Shown here piece after piece: positions 49,002 to 58,098 of a DNA stretch of 62,048 nt; within the stretch, counting starts at the first letter, position 1; every line of letters starts with the position of its first letter. The stretch is from NCBI GenBank assembly GCA_947487955.1, contig CANKYV010000006.1, positions 1-62,048 on the forward strand, written 5' to 3'. The notes below the pieces were generated by a model. That model saw only the letters and a list, made by a program, of their open reading frames with translations, was not told where the DNA came from and did not search any database. The position numbers were made by a program, and so were the translations under genes. The DNA comes from Alphaproteobacteria bacterium. GTDB lineage: Bacteria; Pseudomonadota; Alphaproteobacteria; Paracaedibacterales; CAITNM01.

Positions 49002-50387
49002 TTAATAATGGATTACACGTCCATACGCATCTAGCGTTGACTCATGCATCATTTCTGAAAGAGTTGGGTGTGGGAAAATAGTATGCATTAATTCTGCTTC
49101 TGTTGTTTCCAATGTTTTACCAATAGCAAAGCCATGTATTAACTCAGTAACTTCTGCACCAATCATGTGCGCACCTAATAGCTCACCTGTTTTAGCATCA
49201 AATATTGTCTTCACAAGACCTTCTGCGTCACCCAAAGCAATAGCTTTTCCATTACCACGATAAGGAAATCTACCAACTTTAAGCTGGTGGCCTTCCGCTT
49301 TAGCTTTTTCCTCAGTTAAACCAATGCTTGCAATTTGTGGATGACTATAGGTACAGCCAGGAATATTTGATTTTTTCATCGGATGCAGGCCTTTAACGCC
49401 GCATATGTACTCAACTGCCAATATACCTTCATGACTAGCTTTATGTGCAAGCCATGGAGCGCCAGCAACATCCCCAATAGCATATACGCCCTTTTCGGCC
49501 GTTTCACACCATTCATTCACTAATATTTGGCCTTTTTCTGTTTTTATTTTAGTTTTTTCTAAACCAAGATTTTCGGTATTGCCTGAAATTCCAATTGCCA
49601 CAATCACCGCATCTACTTTTAATTCTTCAATTTTTTTATCATCTTTTGAAATCACAGCACTTACATGGTCTTTAGCAGGAGTGATTTTGCTTACAGAACT
49701 TAAATGAAATTTGATTCCCTGTGTTTCAAATTGCTTTTGCGCCAAAGTAGAAATTTCCGCATCTTCATTAGGTAAGATTCGTGATTGCATCTCAACAACC
49801 GTAACATCAACGCCAAGAGTACGATAAAAACTTGCAAATTCTATCCCTATCGCACCTGAACCAATCACCAAAAGTGACTTTGGTGTAAATTCCGGAGTCA
49901 TTGCTTGCTTTGCTGTCCAAATCCGTGAGTGAGCATCAACACCAGGCAACATACGCGCTTTAGAACCGGTCGCTATAATGATATTTTTTGCTTCTATAGT
50001 TTCTTCTTTTTCGCCTTTTATTTTTAAAGTTTTAGCGTTTTCAAAACTGGCAGTTCCACTGAAAATAGTTACCTTATTTTTAGCCAATAGCCCCTTAATA
50101 CCTGTAGACAGTTGACCAGCAATTTTGCGTGACCGCTCAACCATTTTTGCAAGGTTAATCTTTACCTGGCCTACTTCAATGCCAAACTCATTCGCATGAT
50201 TAATAAGGTGCAGTACTTCAGCAGAACGCAATAGTGCTTTTGTTGGAATACATCCCCAATTTAAGCACACGCCACCAAGATGTTCTTTTTCAATAATAGC
50301 AACTTTTTTACCAAGTTGACTCGCCCTAATGGCCGCAACATACCCACCTGGGCCAGCCCCTATAATAACCACATCAAAACTTTGCAT
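49002..50387 (-). CDS. lpdA: Dihydrolipoamide dehydrogenase
   Basis: GAGPGGY, GGVCLNWGCIPTK and HPTLSE. Confidence 0.96.
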   Translation of the reverse strand: MQSFDVVIIGAGPGGYVAAIRASQLGKKVAIIEKEHLGGVCLNWGCIPTKALLRSAEVLHLINHANEFGIEVGQVKINLAKMVERSRKIAGQLSTGIKGLLAKNKVTIFSGTASFENAKTLKIKGEKEETIEAKNIIIATGSKARMLPGVDAHSRIWTAKQAMTPEFTPKSLLVIGSGAIGIEFASFYRTLGVDVTVVEMQSRILPNEDAEISTLAQKQFETQGIKFHLSSVSKITPAKDHVSAVISKDDKKIEELKVDAVIVAIGISGNTENLGLEKTKIKTEKGQILVNEWCETAEKGVYAIGDVAGAPWLAHKASHEGILAVEYICGVKGLHPMKKSNIPGCTYSHPQIASIGLTEEKAKAEGHQLKVGRFPYRGNGKAIALGDAEGLVKTIFDAKTGELLGAHMIGAEVTELIHGFAIGKTLETTEAELMHTIFPHPTLSEMMHESTLDAYGRVIHY

Positions 50388-50498
50388 ATTTTTCCCTGTA
50401 ATTTCTACATTTCACTAAGATAACTTAAGTTAAGTAATGATGCTATTTTCTTTTTGTTATGGCATAATGTAGCTGGATACGGGAAAGTTTTTAACAAA

Positions 50499-50753
50499 AT
50501 GGCAGAAATTATCATTTATACAACAAATTATTGCCCATATTGTGTTAAAGCAAAACAATTACTACACAACAAAGGTGTTACCTTTGAAGAAATTGATCTC
50601 ACCAATGATGATGCTGGCCGTATAGAATTAGTTAAAAAATCTGGCGGTCGGAAAACAGTTCCCCAGATCTTCATCAATGATCAACATATAGGCGGATGTG
50701 ATGATTTGTATGCTCTAGAAGCCAAGAAAGAGCTTGATCCTTTATTAACATGA
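50499..50753 (+). CDS. grxC: Glutaredoxin 3
   Basis: CPYC, TVPQIFI and GGCDDL. Confidence 0.95.
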   Translation: MAEIIIYTTNYCPYCVKAKQLLHNKGVTFEEIDLTNDDAGRIELVKKSGGRKTVPQIFINDQHIGGCDDLYALEAKKELDPLLT

Positions 50754-52024
50754 GCCTGTTTAAAACAAAATCGCAGAGTATACCCTCAGAAACTTTTGCT
50801 GCTCTTGATATTGGCTCAAGCAAGGTCTGCTGTGCTATTGCAAAAATGAACCGCGATATCATTCCTGAAAAAGGAGTTACTGTTAAAATTTTGGGGGTAG
50901 CTTCTCATGCAGCAAAAGGCATTCGCGGCGCTTCTATTATTAACTTAGAAGAACTTGAAGACTCAATCTTAAATGGTATTCATTCAGCAGAACAACTTGC
51001 AAAGCAAACTATTCATAACGTATACGTTAATCTTCCAGCAGAAGCACTACAATCACATTTTATTACCACAAAAATCTCTCTTTATGGACAACCAGTAAAA
51101 GAATCACACCTTCAAAAAGCTTTAGATGTCAGCAGAGATCAAAGCATTGGCATTGCTAGGAAAATTATTCATATTTTTCCAATTTCATACGATATAGATG
51201 ACAGTACTAATATTCAAGATCCAAAAGGAATGCTAGGCGACACTCTCACAACAAGGCTACATGTAATAACATCTCCATCTAACCTTATTGCAAATCTAAG
51301 CACGTGCCTTGGAAGATGCCACTTAGACGTGAATGCTTTTGTAGCAGGCCCTTATGCTGCTGCACTTGCTTGCCTGACTGAAGATGAAAAAGAAATGGGT
51401 GTGACGTTACTTGATATTGGTAGTCACAGTATTTCCATAATGAGTTTTTATAATGGCAATCCTATCTATCTGGGGTGCTTACCTATGGGCGGAAACCATA
51501 TTACTCATGATATTGCACAAGGGTTAAACACAAATCTTAGCCAAGCTGAGCGCCTTAAAACTTTATACGGCAGCTTATTTGGCGCAATTGATGATCGAGA
51601 GACAATTTTAGTGACTCAACTTGGAGATGATAATACAACTTTTGCTAATCCTGTCTCTAAAAGCTTTTTAATGCATATCATTAAAGCAAGAGCCGAAGAA
51701 ATTATTGAAGCGATTGAGCGAATGCTTACTTCACAGCCTATTGATCCAATAGCACTGCAGCGATTTGTAATTACTGGAGGATCTAGCCAATTGCAAGGCT
51801 TTCGCGATGTTATGCAGTCTCACCTTAATAAAATTGTACGTGTGGCAACACCTCAAGGATTACAAGGAATTGGTGATGTTATTCATACTCCAGCATTTTC
51901 ATTATGTGCAGGGCTTTTACAATATGCACTGCGTGATCATCAAGGATTACAAATAAACAATGCCTTAGGAAAACAAAAAAGTATTGTAATGCGAGCTTGG
52001 AACTGGGTTCGTAACCATGTATAG
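50750..52024 (+). CDS. ftsA: Cell division protein FtsA
   Basis: LDIGSSKV, GG.HITHDI, AERLK and TGGSSQL. Confidence 0.93.
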   Translation: MSLFKTKSQSIPSETFAALDIGSSKVCCAIAKMNRDIIPEKGVTVKILGVASHAAKGIRGASIINLEELEDSILNGIHSAEQLAKQTIHNVYVNLPAEALQSHFITTKISLYGQPVKESHLQKALDVSRDQSIGIARKIIHIFPISYDIDDSTNIQDPKGMLGDTLTTRLHVITSPSNLIANLSTCLGRCHLDVNAFVAGPYAAALACLTEDEKEMGVTLLDIGSHSISIMSFYNGNPIYLGCLPMGGNHITHDIAQGLNTNLSQAERLKTLYGSLFGAIDDRETILVTQLGDDNTTFANPVSKSFLMHIIKARAEEIIEAIERMLTSQPIDPIALQRFVITGGSSQLQGFRDVMQSHLNKIVRVATPQGLQGIGDVIHTPAFSLCAGLLQYALRDHQGLQINNALGKQKSIVMRAWNWVRNHV

Positions 52025-52029
52025 ATCAA

Positions 52030-52179
52030 ATGAACGATAAATCAAAAATTCAATTAGAAAAGCAAAAACGGCTTGAAAAAGCATTACGTGAAAATTTACG
52101 CAAACGCAAACTTCAGCAACGCGAAAGAGAAGATAAAAAGAGCCAAGACTCAGAACAAAAGAAGCCAGAAGAAGCGTAA
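52030..52179 (+). CDS. Small basic protein (49 aa), not in the ORF track
   Basis: MNDKSKIQLEKQKRLEKALRENLRKRKLQQR...; the RL..ALRENL..RK.Q motif resembles a small alphaproteobacterial hypothetical protein. Confidence 0.65.
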   Translation: MNDKSKIQLEKQKRLEKALRENLRKRKLQQREREDKKSQDSEQKKPEEA

Positions 52180-52181
52180 AT

Positions 52182-52883
52182 TTATTGACTCATCATTGAG
52201 GTAAATTTTGAAACAGCATGTTCAGTCGTTTGCGCATTTAATTTTTTGCGGATGTTAGCTAAATGAAAGGCTGCAGTAGATCCAGAAATATTTAAGTTGT
52301 GACTTACTACTTTAATAGTTAATCCTTGCGCTTTTTGAGTAAGAAGTTCAATTTCACGGTCTGTTAAACACTCCAACGCTTGACTATCTTTTATAGTCGC
52401 TATCTTATTTGCACAAACGTTTGCCACTAAAGAAAGGGTATATAAAACTTCTGGGTGTAAAAATGCCTGATTCAGAACTGTTGTAAAACCGTGAAAAGTA
52501 GCATGAGGAATCAAAGGAATGGTAATTCCAGATTTTATACCAAAATCAAATGATTCTTCCATTAAAGTTTGCTGTATTGGCAAAAGATTATCAAAACCGT
52601 CAACGCTCCATTCAAATGGAACCGCTACTTTCTTTAGTGTACTGAACACAGGGTCACACAAATAATATCGTTCTTTTGTATAACGTTTTTCCCATTCTTT
52701 TGAGTACGTGTTGTGCACACAAAAAGATTCCGTAATTTTCTTCTTGCCTGAAAACACAGCAAGTGCAAACTGTTCAACATTAAAGTCATTACAAATGTTC
52801 TGAAAAATTTCAAAAACACCCTCATCAGACTGTGTAATGCTATTTATTTGCTCAATCGCAGCATTTATTCGCTTATTCAGCAT
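52182..52883 (-). CDS. luxR: LuxR-family AHL-responsive transcriptional regulator (full length)
   Basis: Autoinducer-binding residues W, Y, DP, W, G (YSKEWEKRY...DPV...PFEW...GIKSG) and C-terminal HTH (LTDREIELL...G...FHLANIRKKL). Confidence 0.93.
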   Translation of the reverse strand: MLNKRINAAIEQINSITQSDEGVFEIFQNICNDFNVEQFALAVFSGKKKITESFCVHNTYSKEWEKRYTKERYYLCDPVFSTLKKVAVPFEWSVDGFDNLLPIQQTLMEESFDFGIKSGITIPLIPHATFHGFTTVLNQAFLHPEVLYTLSLVANVCANKIATIKDSQALECLTDREIELLTQKAQGLTIKVVSHNLNISGSTAAFHLANIRKKLNAQTTEHAVSKFTSMMSQ

Positions 52884-52976
52884 TTTTAATCCTTTATCTT
52901 ACAACTAGTACTAATTTTAAAAAAACTACTATAAGAAAATATTGCTAAGCTTTTATCGCTCCATACAAAAAAAATG

Positions 52977-53534
52977 TCAATCAGGTCTTCTTGAAAAATT
53001 TCGTTTGTCTTGCAAGGATATAATTTTGTTTGAGCAAACATTACCCACCAGAGAAAGCGTATACAAAACATCATGGTGTAATGATGATTGATTGAGCACG
53101 GTCACAAAACCATGAAAAGTAGCATAAGGAATCAAAGGAATTGTAATGCCAGATTTTATACCAAAATCAAATGATTCTTCCATTAAGGTTTGTTGTGTTG
53201 GCAAGAGACCATCAAAACTTTTAGTATCCCATTCAAAAGGAACAGCAACTTTCCGCAATGAACTAAAAACAGGATCGCATAAATGATATTGTTTCTCTTT
53301 ATAATGCTGTATCCACTCTTTTGAGTAAGTATTGTATATAGAAAATGATTCTGTGATATCTTTTCTACCTGAAAAGATTGCTAATGCAAATTTTTCAAAA
53401 TTTAAATCTAGGCAAATACCTTTAAACACAGCAAACACATCTTCTTCAAAATATTTCACAGCATCTATTCTCTCTAATGCGCTTTTTATTTTCTTATCAG
53501 CTAGCAGTTTTGTACCAGAGATCATTTCACTCAC
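52977..53534 (-). CDS. LuxR paralog with autoinducer-binding domain only (no HTH)
   Basis: Highly similar to the neighbouring luxR (38-bp identical block at 52528 and 53149) but stops just before the HTH. Confidence 0.85.
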   Translation of the reverse strand: MSEMISGTKLLADKKIKSALERIDAVKYFEEDVFAVFKGICLDLNFEKFALAIFSGRKDITESFSIYNTYSKEWIQHYKEKQYHLCDPVFSSLRKVAVPFEWDTKSFDGLLPTQQTLMEESFDFGIKSGITIPLIPYATFHGFVTVLNQSSLHHDVLYTLSLVGNVCSNKIISLQDKRNFSRRPD

Positions 53535-53592
53535 CTCTCACATAAGTACATTATGATTATCGGTAATCTAAAACGATTTTTAGGTTTTCTAA

Positions 53593-53612
53593 ACCTGTTA
53601 GATTATACAGGT
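53593..53612. promoter_or_regulatory. lux box
   Basis: ACCTGT-TAGATTAT-ACAGGT has the same arms as the Vibrio fischeri lux box (ACCTGT-N8-ACAGGT); 59 bp upstream of the truncated luxR start. Confidence 0.85.
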
Positions 53613-53666
53613 AAAATGTTTTTAATTTGATGCTAACAAGAGTTGCACCAGTTTTTTCTAACATCA

Positions 53667-53798
53667 TATAGCCAGACTCATATAAATTGAGCACATAAAT
53701 TTAGATTGCTCGCAAAGACGTTAAATACTTAATTTTTGTCTTCGCGAGGAGCATAAGCGACGTGGCGATCTTATAATTAAATTGTAGTTCTGGCTATA
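53667..53798. mobile_element. MITE-like element with 10-bp terminal inverted repeats enclosing REP/RPE-like sequence
   Basis: TATAGCCAGA...TCTGGCTATA ends; internal GTCTTCGCGAGGAGC..GCGACGTGGCGATCT and AGATTGCTCGCAAAGAC. Confidence 0.55.
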
Positions 53799-53815
53799 CT
53801 CTAGGCTTCTAAATC

Positions 53816-53917
53816 ATCATCTTGAGCCCTTAAGAAGGCGTGAAAATCCAGTAAGTAATTTCAATGTTGAAATAATAAAACTGGACCCTCACGAGAGCTA
53901 TGCTCCCTCAGGGTGAC
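53816..53917. repeat. Nested imperfect palindrome (REP/REPIN-like)
   Basis: ATCATCTTGAG/CTCAGGGTGAC outer arms and GTGAAAATCCAGT/ACTGGACCCTCAC inner arms. Confidence 0.55.
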
Positions 53918-54081
53918 GAGTTTCTAAGCAACTTTATTCCGGACAGCAGTGCAGACACGCCAGTGACAAACTCTGCCGAGGATTTTAGGCAGAGCACGTA
54001 AATCTATTCAAAAATATTTATTGGAAAGGGATCAAGAAACAAATGCAAACTCATTCCCCGTATTTTTTTTATAAGCAAGTC

Positions 54082-54267
54082 TTACTGAAGCTCTTCCTTA
54101 AAAAGCTCATCCATCATTTTACTTTGAGCATCTAAAATTCTTATTTCTTTCAAAACTATTTCTGTTTTTTGAAGTTCGTTTATATTCATTTTCTTCATCC
54201 CCTTACTCTGCTGACTATCTTCAGTTTTTTGCTGACTATTTTCGATATTTTGCACTGCATCCACCAT
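54082..54267 (-). CDS. Small hypothetical protein (61 aa)
   Basis: Strong RBS (AAAAGGAGA) upstream; internal SQQ duplication. Confidence 0.6.
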   Translation of the reverse strand: MVDAVQNIENSQQKTEDSQQSKGMKKMNINELQKTEIVLKEIRILDAQSKMMDELFKEELQ

Positions 54268-54360
54268 GGACTTTTTTCTCCTTTTGATTCCAATAACCTA
54301 TTGATATCAAGTATTTTTATAATTTTTATCCAATAAAAAATTGTTATTTATACTTATACT

Positions 54361-54885
54361 CTAATTCGAATAAGATAGGAAATAATTTTTTTGTCTTACA
54401 AATTGCAAAAATTCTACCCCCAGTTTAGTTAAACAAATTTTTCCAGCTTGTACTTGAATAAAATTTGAATTTTTTAAAAAATTAAGCCATGTAAAAAATG
54501 CTGGCATATTTTTATGAGCAGTTGAAACATTTTTTGCAAATATCTGGTAGATATCTTTCTCAGAAAAAGCAACTCCGTAATGAAATTCAAGGTATTCTAA
54601 TAATTTAATATGACTTCTAGAAACACGCTTATACGTATTTTCATAATAAGCCACTTTCTGCAATACGCATTCTTTATCTCCAGTCTTGCCATTTAGAGAA
54701 ACAGCCTTTAAATGCGGACTGACTAAATTTATCTTGTTAGCGTTGGCTTTTTTTTCATTGAACTGCACCTGCATTTTGCATACCAGAGGCCAAGCAATCT
54801 GCGTTATACAATAGAAGCAAGCTATAACAACACATCCACCTGCAATAAAACGTAGCAAGAAAATTTTCAAGGTTTTTGCCATCAT
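54361..54885 (-). CDS. Membrane-anchored protein with a possible C-terminal winged-helix
   Basis: N-terminal TM; C-terminal WLNFLKNSNFI...ICLTKLGVEFL; lux box upstream. Confidence 0.7.
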   Translation of the reverse strand: MMAKTLKIFLLRFIAGGCVVIACFYCITQIAWPLVCKMQVQFNEKKANANKINLVSPHLKAVSLNGKTGDKECVLQKVAYYENTYKRVSRSHIKLLEYLEFHYGVAFSEKDIYQIFAKNVSTAHKNMPAFFTWLNFLKNSNFIQVQAGKICLTKLGVEFLQFVRQKNYFLSYSN

Positions 54886-54942
54886 TCATCTCCGTTTCTA
54901 AAGTTCCGTGATGAGTTTTAGCTTGAATTGACTAATATTTAA

Positions 54943-54962
54943 ACCTGTTACTTTATACAGTT
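54943..54962. promoter_or_regulatory. lux box
   Basis: ACCTGT-TACTTTAT-ACAGTT; 58 bp upstream of the 54885 start. Confidence 0.8.
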
Positions 54963-54978
54963 ATTTCTAGAATTATAG

Positions 54979-55602
54979 CTAACCTTGACCTTGTAAAATA
55001 TAAACAGGTTCGTTGGCAGGAAGATTTATTTTATCTAATAGCTTAGAATATGACTCGGCTAGCGGTGAATATTCCGTTACGTGTATTTCTTCATTATTAA
55101 CAACGCTACGAGCTAAAAGTGATGTTGAAAAAAACTGGGAAAGAATCCTCGCTGGAGAGGGATAAGAAAGTGTCACAAAGCTTTTAATCTCTGCGTCTAA
55201 ACCAAACAAAACTGAAGCCGCTAATATTCTACAGCACACATTCTTTGCATCTTCTTTTGTATAACCTTCAGCAAAATCGTAGTCAACAGCCATACGACTC
55301 GCTTCCCAATGCTGCGCGTTCTTATAGTCTTTTAAATTTGATAATACAAAATCAAAAGGACCATCAAACATACAAGGGTTATTCATAGGAATATAACGCT
55401 GACACCCCCTAACAATGTTATTTTTGTCCTTAAAAATTAAATAATATGTATTATTTTCATCATACTCATCTTTTTCCATACCATCTTCACTGTTAACCTG
55501 CCACTTCAATTTTTCAAAAAATACCTTATGACGAAGCCTGTACATTGCATCTAGATCATCGCGGTGTGTAGAATACTCATTGGGTGTAATTAGATAAACC
55601 AT
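54979..55602 (-). CDS. luxI: Acyl-homoserine-lactone synthase
   Basis: YRLRHKVF..KLKW, EKDEYD, GCQRY.P and WEASR signatures. Confidence 0.95.
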   Translation of the reverse strand: MVYLITPNEYSTHRDDLDAMYRLRHKVFFEKLKWQVNSEDGMEKDEYDENNTYYLIFKDKNNIVRGCQRYIPMNNPCMFDGPFDFVLSNLKDYKNAQHWEASRMAVDYDFAEGYTKEDAKNVCCRILAASVLFGLDAEIKSFVTLSYPSPARILSQFFSTSLLARSVVNNEEIHVTEYSPLAESYSKLLDKINLPANEPVYILQGQG

Positions 55603-55658
55603 AAAAATACCTGTTATCGTTAGATGAGCTATATTTAGTGATAGTTATTTGTAATTTC

Positions 55659-55678
55659 AACTGTTTAAATAAATAGGA
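55659..55678. promoter_or_regulatory. Degenerate lux box upstream of luxI
   Basis: AACTGT-TTAAATAA-ATAGGA; 57 bp upstream of the luxI ATG, matching the spacing of the other two boxes. Confidence 0.55.
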
Positions 55679-55842
55679 AAAAACAAAATAAACATTTTTT
55701 ACACTATAAAATATATAAAATTGAACTAAATAATTTTAAAAAAAATATAATAAAATAAATTACGAAAATATTAACACTAAAGATATAAGAATTTTTTTAC
55801 TTTTTTAGAAAATCTATATAATCAACTAAAAAATTTTTAACT

Positions 55843-55862
55843 ACCTGTATAATTATACAGTT
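55843..55862. promoter_or_regulatory. lux box (distal)
   Basis: ACCTGT-ATAATTAT-ACAGTT, with a perfect 16-bp palindromic core CTGTATAATTATACAG. Confidence 0.78.
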
Positions 55863-55925
55863 CAGATCTGCTTATGGGGTATAATTAAACAGAAGGCTAA
55901 AAACTTAAGATGCATTCTTAAAATT

Positions 55926-56738
55926 TTAGCGCCAGTGGCGGCCGTGCCAACCTTCTCTACGCCCCCAGCCTCCTCCAAGCCAAATGCCAGGACCACCCCA
56001 ATAAGGATAACCATAATAAGGCGCACGATGTTCTTCTATAATAATCGGTTGAACAGGTTGCACAGGAGGACCATAGGCTGGAGGAACTTGTTTAACGCTT
56101 GCTGCTGGTGTTGCTACGGAAGCTGATTTCTCATGTTTCGCTGCGTGATGGATATTTTTTGCCCGATCAATCACACCTTGTAAAAATGCCCCAACCTCAC
56201 TGGTTGGATCTTTGATAGTTATATCAACAGTAATCTTTATTGATTTACCTTTTTCTTTATCACCTGGCCAACGATAGGTGTACTCAAAAGCATGACCATT
56301 CCAATGACCCTTCTCTAATAATAGCCTTTCACCACTTTTAAAATATCCCATTTCTGTTTCGTCATTTTTAGACTTTTCTCTAGCGTCGCTTTCCCCATCA
56401 ATCTCATTTGCCCAACACAATGCAATGTGTTTTTCATCTTCATGCCGTTCTTCAGGTGTTAAGCGAATTTTTATCGAAGTCCAAGGACCATCAAATGTTA
56501 ATTCTTCATTTTTTACAAGCTGAATAATTTCATCTTTGCCTAATTCATATCCTGGACATAATGCCCAAGTGATAATTTTTTCATCAGATAAAGTTCTTAA
56601 TTTTTCAAGGTCATAACTTTCTACTTTTTTGACGGCTTCTGCATGTGCTGACTCATTTTGCATGGGATCTCCGCCAGCAAAAGCAAACACACAAAAGCAA
56701 GTAAATAGAAATAAATTAAGAATTTTCATATTAAACAA
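55926..56738 (-). CDS. Secreted hypothetical protein with Pro/Gly/Trp/Arg-rich tail
   Basis: Signal peptide ending AFA; C-terminal PYYGYPYWGGPGIWLGGGWGRR. Confidence 0.7.
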   Translation of the reverse strand: MFNMKILNLFLFTCFCVFAFAGGDPMQNESAHAEAVKKVESYDLEKLRTLSDEKIITWALCPGYELGKDEIIQLVKNEELTFDGPWTSIKIRLTPEERHEDEKHIALCWANEIDGESDAREKSKNDETEMGYFKSGERLLLEKGHWNGHAFEYTYRWPGDKEKGKSIKITVDITIKDPTSEVGAFLQGVIDRAKNIHHAAKHEKSASVATPAASVKQVPPAYGPPVQPVQPIIIEEHRAPYYGYPYWGGPGIWLGGGWGRREGWHGRHWR

Positions 56739-56785
56739 TATTTATTATATAGTTATATATATGTTAACATTGGCATTACTAATAA

Positions 56786-57214
56786 TTAATTAATAAAGAC
56801 TCCTGTACAATATGTTCCCCAAAAACCTATAGCCCACGCAACCACAAATGGCAATTTTTGCGTTTGTGTAGTTTTAAAAATAACAACAAGAACACCAGCC
56901 GTAATCATGCAATAAACAGGCAAAAAGTTAATAGCAAAACACCCTGCACCAAAACTAAAAAGCACAATATCAACCAGCTGAATGCTATTTTTTCTAAAGT
57001 ATCGATATCCCCATAAAAAACAAAAAATCCCTAAAACATGAAAAGGATAGTGAAGGTTTAAAGTTAAAGCGATTAGAGTTGCAAGAATAGTTCCTACATT
57101 CAACAATCGCTTTTTCCAGTCTTGCCATGCAAGAAGAACGGTCAACGGGAGAAGTAAAAATAAAAAAGGAAACACATAACAAATACCAAATACTGAAAAG
57201 CTGATATTATTCAT
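56786..57214 (-). CDS. Membrane protein, possible degenerate A24 prepilin peptidase
   Basis: Multi-TM; AWQDWKKRLL, IQLVDIVL and LPFV resemble the D.., GxGD and PF motifs. Confidence 0.45.
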   Translation of the reverse strand: MNNISFSVFGICYVFPFLFLLLPLTVLLAWQDWKKRLLNVGTILATLIALTLNLHYPFHVLGIFCFLWGYRYFRKNSIQLVDIVLFSFGAGCFAINFLPVYCMITAGVLVVIFKTTQTQKLPFVVAWAIGFWGTYCTGVFIN

Positions 57215-57274
57215 AGTACCATGTCTTTCGAAGAAAAAGCTGAAGTATGCTACCAGACCAAAAGTCTAGATAGA

Positions 57275-57469
57275 TCAATCATTTTCTTTATTTTTACGCA
57301 AATCAGTTAGCATTACCGCTAATCTATCCGATAATTTCGACTTCACAGCTTTTTTAATTTCATCTGAGAAGTTTATCCAATTTTGTACTTCATACGCATT
57401 ACGTCCACAGCCAATACAAACCTTATCAGCGTTAAGCACACAAATTCTTACGCAGGGAGATTTTTCCAA
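57275..57469 (-). CDS. DUF1289-family Cys-rich protein
   Basis: SPCVRIC...CIGCGR...EV..W. Confidence 0.85.
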   Translation of the reverse strand: MEKSPCVRICVLNADKVCIGCGRNAYEVQNWINFSDEIKKAVKSKLSDRLAVMLTDLRKNKEND

Positions 57470-58098
57470 CTTAAACCCTTCCTTTCTTGTAAAATGTCAA
57501 TAATTTGGCGGTGAATAACCTTTGGGTGAGAATCTGCTTGCATCACTACGCAACGGCTAGGATTATCTTTAGCAATTTCTAAAAATCCAGCTCTTATTCG
57601 CTTATGAAATTCCATATCCATTGCTTCAAAGCGCCCTTCAACAACTACATTACCTTCCATACGGGTTGTTGCACGCTTAATCCCTTCATACACATCAAGA
57701 TCAAATACAAAGGTGATGTCTGGCTCGATATCACCAACAACGTAGTTATATAATAATTGCAAAAATTCTCGATTAACTCCTCTACCGTACCCTTGATAAG
57801 CAACTGTTGAGTCCGCAAATCTGTCACACAAAACCCAACTACCATTATCAAGAGCCGGCTTAATTGTATTTTGCCAATGATCAGCACGAGCCGCATACAT
57901 TAACAAAACCTCGCTCATGTTTGACCAACGATCTACAGATCCTGTTACAAGCAAATTTCGAATAATCTCAGCCCCTGGGCTTCCGCCTGGTTCTCGAGTT
58001 AAAACAACATCAACGTCATTTTTTTTTAAAATATCAGCCAAGATCAAAGCTTGCGTGCTTTTTCCTGTACCTTCTCCGCCTTCAAAAGTAATAAACAT
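57448..58098 (-). CDS. tmk: Thymidylate kinase
   Basis: FITFEGGEGTGKSTQ, TREPGG and CDRFADST.AYQG. Confidence 0.96.
   Translation of the reverse strand: MFITFEGGEGTGKSTQALILADILKKNDVDVVLTREPGGSPGAEIIRNLLVTGSVDRWSNMSEVLLMYAARADHWQNTIKPALDNGSWVLCDRFADSTVAYQGYGRGVNREFLQLLYNYVVGDIEPDITFVFDLDVYEGIKRATTRMEGNVVVEGRFEAMDMEFHKRIRAGFLEIAKDNPSRCVVMQADSHPKVIHRQIIDILQERKGLSWKNLPA

Follow-up and report, generated by a model that had tools for sequence, protein, structure and literature searches.

The question raised by this locus is whether an open reading frame that encodes the ligand-binding domain (LBD) of a LuxR-type receptor, and that lies directly beside a full-length luxR gene, is a remnant of gene decay or a maintained part of the AHL circuit in which it is embedded. 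Throughout, the window denotes the whole stretch of DNA that was analysed, 62,048 nucleotides in length. The cluster lies on its minus strand in the order luxI, orf174, an 826-bp spacer, the short luxR, a 93-bp gap and the full-length luxR, after which follows a convergent ftsA. The features used in the analysis are the following.

52182–52883, minus strand: full-length LuxR-type receptor and presumed partner (233 aa; Autoind_bind and GerE HTH by Pfam)
52952–52980, minus strand: promoter-like block TTGACA-N17-GATAAA before luxR, seen in the gap alignment (putative promoter)
52977–53534, minus strand: short LuxR paralogue with the ligand-binding domain only, from the ORF list and Pfam (TGA stop at 52977–52979)
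53106–53204, minus strand: candidate gene-conversion tract shared with luxR 52485–52583 (identity at 92 of 99 nt, including an unbroken run of 38 nt)
53565–53570, minus strand: -10-like hexamer TAGATT, located 22 nt downstream of the lux box (putative promoter element)
53593–53612, read on the minus strand: lux-box-like 20-bp palindrome ACCTGTATAATCTAACAGGT, 58 bp ahead of the annotated GTG start codon
54361–54885, minus strand: orf174, a conserved 174-aa gene between luxI and the short luxR, with its own lux box at 54943–54962
54979–55602, minus strand: luxI-type AHL synthase (207 aa; Pfam Autoind_synth, 98.5 bits, the single match in the genome)
55843–55862: lux box of luxI, with 1 mismatch

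Dispersed, relatively GC-rich repeat pieces occur at 53690–54010 in the 826-bp spacer that separates orf174 from the short luxR, and a unit of ∼100 nt from among them recurs twice on contig C4 with 91–95% identity; the equivalent spacer in the related genome G010 measures 1.7 kb. A search of positions 50000–58000 against Rfam gave no match.

The short frame can be read as 185 aa from a GTG at 53534 or as 182 aa from an ATG at 53525. The ATG is the likelier start, since it is the one used for the short LuxR in the public gene call, giving a protein that begins MISGTK, and since a GAGAGGTGA ribosome-binding site is located a few bases upstream of it. Using Pfam, we obtained Autoind_bind (PF03472) as the sole match in the short protein (75.5 bits over residues 30–149, the curated cut-off being 23 bits) and no match to GerE. 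The protein therefore shares its LBD family, pocket residues and fold with canonical LuxR receptors and LuxR solos, whereas it lacks the GerE HTH that defines canonical LuxR-type transcription factors. In alignment with the first 168 residues of the full-length neighbour, 108 of 168 residues (64%) are identical (E 3e-87). When the protein was aligned to TraR (1h0m), the equivalents of W57, Y61, D70, P71, W85 and G113, which make up the six-residue AHL-pocket list quoted in TraR numbering in the pertinent passages of PMC11655674, were all found to be identical. Across ten short forms, five of these six residues are invariant and the W85 position is kept in nine.

An AlphaFold2 model of the short protein, built on a 10-row alignment (pLDDT 75, pTM 0.73), displays a complete alpha/beta/alpha ligand-binding fold, the last helix of which is long (residues 151–178). 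The best Foldseek matches of this model were LasR LBD constructs, which it covers in full, with a TM of 0.75–0.77 by target length over 163–166 columns (E 1.8e-9). The frame stops in the linker, 7–17 residues past the last LBD helix. Local alignment of the short gene's tail and the 93-bp gap with the HTH-coding DNA of luxR disclosed no HTH remnant, 430 of 500 shuffles scoring as high, and the same alignment carried out in three species was equally negative (430, 67 and 131 of 500 shuffles as high). The sequence-only reading had depicted a LuxR copy that keeps the AHL pocket, lacks the DNA-binding domain, stops cleanly at the linker and leaves no trace of the HTH in the 93-bp gap; all four observations are borne out by these results.

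Two further candidates were rejected. A faint ATTGACATTT similarity, considered as an HTH remnant, corresponds to the conserved promoter-like block before luxR. The idea of a split gene with a separately encoded HTH finds no stand-alone GerE gene in the genome, where the five GerE matches all fall within frames of 238–282 aa.

We analyzed the age of the truncation by comparing gene order among relatives, all of which are uncultured MAGs. Matches were found in only 3 of the 14 genus genomes searched, namely in the present genome (G000) and in two others that carry the cluster (G010 and G005). These three have in common the order orf142, luxI, orf174, short gene or genes and full-length luxR, with a convergent ftsA, G005 having two short genes in tandem. 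The full-length LuxR orthologues are 76% identical to that of the window in G010 and 71% in G005. The short-then-full order is also present on seven metagenome contigs (L130–L136), the shorter of which carry the cluster in part only; L130 and L134 clearly belong to the same species as G010, and L136 to that of G005. Beside the short gene, orf174 was found in the three genomes and on the three longer contigs. The truncation is kept, and the frame open, in all ten syntenic loci, so that the conservation of the truncation in relatives, which had been proposed as a check, is confirmed. In a protein search, 17 relatives were retrieved, seven of which (including the window's own) are proteins of 167–187 aa with Autoind_bind only.

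A maximum-likelihood tree of the ligand-binding domain was computed from 37 rows and 171 columns, a freshly split paralogue on G005:C14 being left out. In this tree, the syntenic full-length proteins form one clade (99/98), and seven short forms, including that of the window, group together and apart from the full-length orthologues (84/94, not starred). The second short form of G005 and P0014 are placed beside the full-length protein P0013 (96/96), and the nearest relatives of the short form are paralogues of its own genus. When all nine short forms of the genus are constrained to one clade, the log-likelihood drops by 26 units (AU p = 0.017), a test in which the group was named after the tree had been seen and in which gene conversion can distort the tree. 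On the evidence of synteny and divergence, the duplication and the truncation are older than the split of at least three species. The description of the gene as recently duplicated is thus contradicted, as the same position in three genus genomes and seven metagenome contigs, the tree and a dS of about 1 all point to an old event.

LBD-only LuxR genes with intact pocket residues, adjoining luxR or luxI, are also encountered in other genera of the order. In G025, a 183-aa LBD-only gene (L030, C9, 5169–5720) directly precedes a 238-aa luxR, and in G016 a 156-aa LBD-only gene (L032, C21, 2812–3282) lies near two luxI genes. In G005, a tandem LuxR paralogue (L029, C14, 16733–17448, minus strand) has been broken only recently into two frames, one of 154 aa with the LBD and one of 75 aa with the HTH, and illustrates a way in which HTH-less forms can originate.

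The DNA of the short gene had been described as near-identical to luxR in places. This proved correct for one 99-nt tract, in which 92 of 99 positions agree; the remainder of the aligned domain is only 66% identical (248/375), and the resemblance is not a sign of recency. In the alignment windows of the tract, the short–full pairs of G010 and G005 are only 67–77% identical, and the tract, being specific to G000, is best explained by a gene-conversion event in the lineage of this genome. The short copy was probably the donor, since the full-length copy of G000 carries F and A at positions occupied by R and P in the other full-length orthologues and by Y/F and A in the short forms, residues which look derived from the short lineage. 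The tract includes a portion of the pocket strands as well as the loop 132–135, which lies in the dimer face of the complex model described below.

Selection on the short form was assessed from dN/dS, calculated by the Nei-Gojobori method (NG86) for the G000–G010 pair, as comparisons with G005 were saturated at synonymous sites. The following values were obtained.

Short form: dN 0.184, dS 1.05, dN/dS 0.175 (bootstrap 95% 0.10–0.29)
Full-length LuxR: dN 0.131, dS 1.445, dN/dS 0.09 (bootstrap 95% 0.052–0.14)
Full-length LuxR, first 168 residues: dN 0.104, dS 1.984, dN/dS 0.053 (bootstrap median 0.057; bootstrap 95% 0.027–0.109)
luxI: dN 0.126, dS 1.896, dN/dS 0.066
ftsA: dN 0.093, dS 1.339, dN/dS 0.069
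orf174: dN 0.32, dS 1.337, dN/dS 0.24

In addition, we simulated neutral evolution of the 182-codon frame by random substitution at the base composition of the window, under which the frame remained open in 229, 24, 4 and 2 of 5000 runs at 0.1, 0.2, 0.3 and 0.5 changes per site, respectively. The dN/dS of 0.17 and the frame-survival simulation together show the short form to be under purifying selection, which is about three-fold relaxed when set against the corresponding domain of the full-length receptor (0.17 versus 0.057). The dN/dS comparison suggested in the earlier reading, with its orthologue ratio of 0.17 between species, hence favours function over decay.

The locus could alternatively represent a decaying pseudogene, that is, a broken luxR copy on its way out. 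Breakage does create truncated LuxRs, as illustrated by the separate LBD and HTH frames on G005:C14, and in G031, a genome of the same order but of a different genus, the gene that is probably orthologous to the intact 183-aa short form of G025 is degraded, an internal TGA leaving an 88-aa frame, so that the short protein can be lost. Set against these cases are the dN/dS of 0.17 at a dS of about 1, the open frame at every one of the ten syntenic loci, the survival of the frame in at most 4 of 5000 neutral runs at 0.3 or more changes per site, and the conservation of the pocket, the lux box and the ribosome-binding site; moreover, the orthologues, being 68% identical, are not assembly copies of one sequence. 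We therefore give a pseudogene hardly any credence, and decay as the general state of the short form can be regarded as excluded by these comparisons. The truncation in 10/10 loci, the dN/dS of 0.17 and a lux box in 9/10 loci lend inferential support to the earlier proposal of an autoinduced LuxR partner rather than simple decay.

The palindrome ACCTGTATAATCTAACAGGT is the sole match without mismatch to ACCTGT-N8-ACAGGT in the 1.55-Mb genome, and the short gene does lie, as had been stated, behind the best lux box. When up to one mismatch was allowed, seven lux-box sites were found as against one for the reversed control, and three of the seven belong to this cluster. A lux box is located ∼60–80 bp before the first short gene in 9/10 syntenic loci; it is perfect in G000, G010 and L130–L134 and has two mismatches in G005 and L136, and in L135 no lux box within two mismatches was found before the short gene. 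Following the box by 22–23 nt, -10-like hexamers (TAGATT, TAGGTT and TAGTAT) are present in the three genomes. A -10 element at such a distance is the geometry expected for a LuxR-type activator, as in class II lux and tra boxes.

The four other one-mismatch lux boxes of G000 are situated at C31:12878–12897 (L039), C35:3104–3123 (L040), C24:20050–20069 (L038) and C1:68980–68999 (L035). Two of these four each precede by 58 bp a DksA/TraR-type zinc-finger gene, the two genes being paralogous (131 and 136 aa). Another is found in front of a gene of the PEBP family, immediately downstream of a LuxR paralogue, and the remaining one in the vicinity of an HTH_3 gene. Next to the C31 box, a frame of 125 aa matches a RING/MIZ zinc finger below the threshold.

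In this genome, the TTGACA of the promoter-like block before luxR contains the stop codon of the short gene. The pattern TTGACA-N17-GATAA is present in 10/10 syntenic loci, the rest of the gap does not align, and it occurs once among the 124,096 positions of the window on both strands. The TTGACA-N17-GATAAA block is probably luxR's own promoter, and consequently only the short form would be signal-induced. A generic promoter scan did not have the block in its list because its -10 element lacks the final T. No terminator-like site was predicted between the short gene and luxR; read-through from the lux-box promoter into luxR is therefore possible, and would blur a simple feedback picture.

Two RNA libraries, each from a separate study, yielded contigs with 100% identity to the short ORF. 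Run X3 covers positions 53149–53427 within the short ORF, together with orf174, luxI and the 3′ part of luxR, and run X11 covers 53157–53307 and 52911–53061, the latter segment extending from the end of the short gene into the gap. All sequencing-run data consist of contigs, which carry neither strand, level nor transcript ends, and RNA libraries can contain DNA; the matches thus show presence and are weak support for, not proof of, transcription, and uncovered stretches (such as the spacer at 53431–54488 in X3) carry no meaning. In one X3 contig, 52527 is joined to 53149 by way of the identical 38 nt, so that the 5′ part of the short gene is linked to the 3′ part of luxR. The likeliest cause of this junction is that the assembler collapsed a repeat longer than its word, although a recombinant hybrid gene would give the same picture.

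We modelled residues 1–170 of the full-length LuxR (16-row alignment) together with the short form (10 rows) as a two-chain complex. The heterodimer models reached ipSAE values of 0.69, 0.55 and 0.61 (quoted as 0.61), compared to 0.00 in all three controls; the mark used is one reached by 116 of 157 solved complexes and by 2 of 215 mismatched pairs. At least 84% of the contacts agree between runs, and the pLDDT of the partner is at least 80. The modelled interface is symmetric and comprises helix 1, residues 92–96 and 132–135 (also given as 85–89 and 125–128) and the last helix, corresponding to the LBD dimer face of the LuxR family. Multimer modelling, which had been suggested as a check on pairing, is thus positive with respect to its controls, but since LuxR-type LBD dimers are solved structures, the pass may stem from likeness to these and is not proof of binding. 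Conservation among the short forms is no higher at the interface residues than elsewhere (0.748 versus 0.733; 3735 of 10000 permutations as high), and the last helix is conserved (mean 0.795).

Taken together, we regard it as reasonably probable that the short ORF encodes a functional, long-maintained LuxR paralogue, reduced to the AHL-binding domain, which gives TrlR-like negative feedback. The most likely effect of the short protein is to dampen the full-length receptor next to it, inhibition being assumed solely by analogy with TrlR; AHL binding, lux-box control and heterodimer formation are, like this inhibition, inferred. According to this model, the full-length LuxR would be made from its own TTGACA-N17-GATAAA promoter independently of the signal. 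As AHL from the single LuxI accumulates, LuxR–AHL would occupy the perfect lux box and switch the short gene on, and the short protein would bind the same AHL and pair with the full-length LuxR through the LBD dimer face formed by helix 1 and the last helix. Mixed dimers with one DNA-binding domain would activate poorly, and the outcome would be a delayed negative feedback on quorum sensing, like that of TrlR on TraR.

The same anatomy, in which a short gene adjoins a full-length one, the pocket is intact and a heterodimer is predicted, is equally compatible with a positive sensor, in which the AHL-bound short form would pull signal-free, DNA-bound LuxR off its sites and thereby cause de-repression. 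The HTH-less CerN of Cereibacter sphaeroides, encoded beside full-length LuxRs and luxI, works in this manner according to the parts of PMC11655674 devoted to it, and the four full-length LuxR paralogues of the present genome provide possible targets. However, the full-length neighbour retains all pocket residues, and the lux boxes stand ∼23 nt upstream of -10-like hexamers, an activator-type position. Because of these two features, a signal-dependent activator fits better than a signal-free repressor, and we deem de-repression of this kind unlikely.

Alternatively, the short protein may act purely as an AHL sink or buffer, sequestering the signal and raising the threshold without touching LuxR. 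The retention of the pocket residues across the short forms, five of six being invariant in ten, the interface residues with no extra conservation, and lux-box induction, which would give a self-limiting sink, all fit such a role. A stoichiometric protein sink would, however, be poorly suited to lowering a signal that diffuses freely, and the retained, well conserved last helix of the dimer face and the heterodimer model that passes its controls count against such a role, so that we hold a pure sink to be quite improbable. The short LBD could also serve another partner, such as the orf174 product, in a split sensor-and-output pair made up of a membrane anchor and a possible winged helix. The gene lies beside the short gene in the three genomes and the three longer contigs and has a lux box of its own, and its product has an N-terminal hydrophobic stretch; Atlas structure rows hint at a winged-helix-like C-terminus (TM ∼0.5), which we take as a lead only. 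Considering that this structural lead is weak and that searches for an orf174 family gave no match in Pfam or NCBIfam, such a pair seems very unlikely, and we know of no precedent for an LBD-only LuxR acting with an orf174-type protein.

The kind of regulator favoured here, an HTH-less LuxR that dampens its full-length neighbour, would not be new in itself. TrlR (TraS), encoded on octopine-type Ti plasmids of Agrobacterium tumefaciens, forms inactive heterodimers with AHL-bound TraR according to the relevant passages of PMC11655674 and PMC13043044, which cite Chai 2001, Zhu and Winans 1998 and Oger 1998 as primary literature. As described there, TrlR resembles the short LuxR in having an AHL-binding domain without a DNA-binding domain and in residing together with a full-length paralogue, but it is a recent copy, 88% identical to TraR (PMC11655674), whereas the short LuxR is 64% identical to its neighbour and older than the species splits. 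Between the short LuxR and TraR, similarity is limited to 84 residues (E 2.3e-6); the short LuxR does not descend from TraR, and its origin is independent. TrlR arose by frameshift and is opine-induced; unlike TrlR, the short LuxR lies behind a lux box and has no HTH remnant downstream.

CerN antagonises the repressor-like CerM, which binds DNA without AHL and to which it is 31% identical, as stated in the sections of PMC11655674 on this pair. Compared by description, CerN is like the short LuxR in being HTH-less, in having an intact pocket, in lying beside a full-length LuxR and luxI and in its old divergence, and the AHL-dependent binding to a full-length LuxR by which CerN acts (PMC11655674, same sections) is a likeness that the short LuxR would share. 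Other proteins, namely TraM, QslA, QteE and QscR, restrain LuxR-type activators by protein contact and thereby set threshold or timing, as outlined in the corresponding part of PMC13043044. TraM, QslA and QteE have unrelated folds and QscR keeps its DNA-binding domain, whereas the inhibitor proposed here would be a copy of the receptor's own LBD. From the two HTH-less LuxRs described so far, the short LuxR differs in being old, conserved across species and placed behind a lux box. No description of these short LuxR proteins was found in the open-access literature, and two surveys, in the passages that set out their definitions, define LuxR-like proteins by both domains and would probably miss HTH-less LuxRs for that reason.

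The genome as a whole encodes one luxI, four full-length LuxR paralogues, the short form and a 116-aa LBD fragment on C43. The latter (L006, 787–1137, minus strand) is a frame with a partial Autoind_bind match (25.7 bits) that lacks the N-terminal third of the domain as well as an HTH. A full-length TLC ATP/ADP translocase is encoded at G000:C3:68337–69800 (L128; 565 bits). Together, the genome size of 1.55 Mb, the GC content of ∼36% in the window and the ATP/ADP translocase suggest a host-dependent lifestyle, the translocase in a small genome suggesting an intracellular, energy-parasitic one. The terms quorum, LuxR and autoinducer do not occur in a review of the Holosporales, an order to which the present organism may or may not belong. 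With such a lifestyle, the possession of an AHL circuit in which four full-length LuxR paralogues are accompanied by one short form is notable.

As HTH-less LuxRs are known from single cases, TrlR being a recent plasmid accident and CerN the other, the short LuxR provides a clean comparative case for the evolution of HTH-less partners, and its conservation across species, the purifying selection on it and its conserved lux box argue for a designed part of the circuit. A broader proposal, which we put forward tentatively and hold to be possible but doubtful, is that LBD-only LuxR copies are a recurrent, selected circuit element of this probably intracellular lineage with its reduced genome, which would have arisen at least twice in the genus and which occurs in other genera of the order as well, with the strongest lux box letting the receptor induce its own dominant-negative partner and with short-to-full conversion of the pocket-and-interface segment keeping the two proteins matched. 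If true, this would make the short LuxR, unlike the one-off TrlR, a built-in, co-evolving negative-feedback module of AHL signalling. As the organism is uncultured, the value of these results lies in a hypothesis that is testable in a heterologous host rather than in a demonstrated mechanism. Overall, the cluster gives a hint of a host-dependent bacterium whose AHL signalling would be under feedback control.
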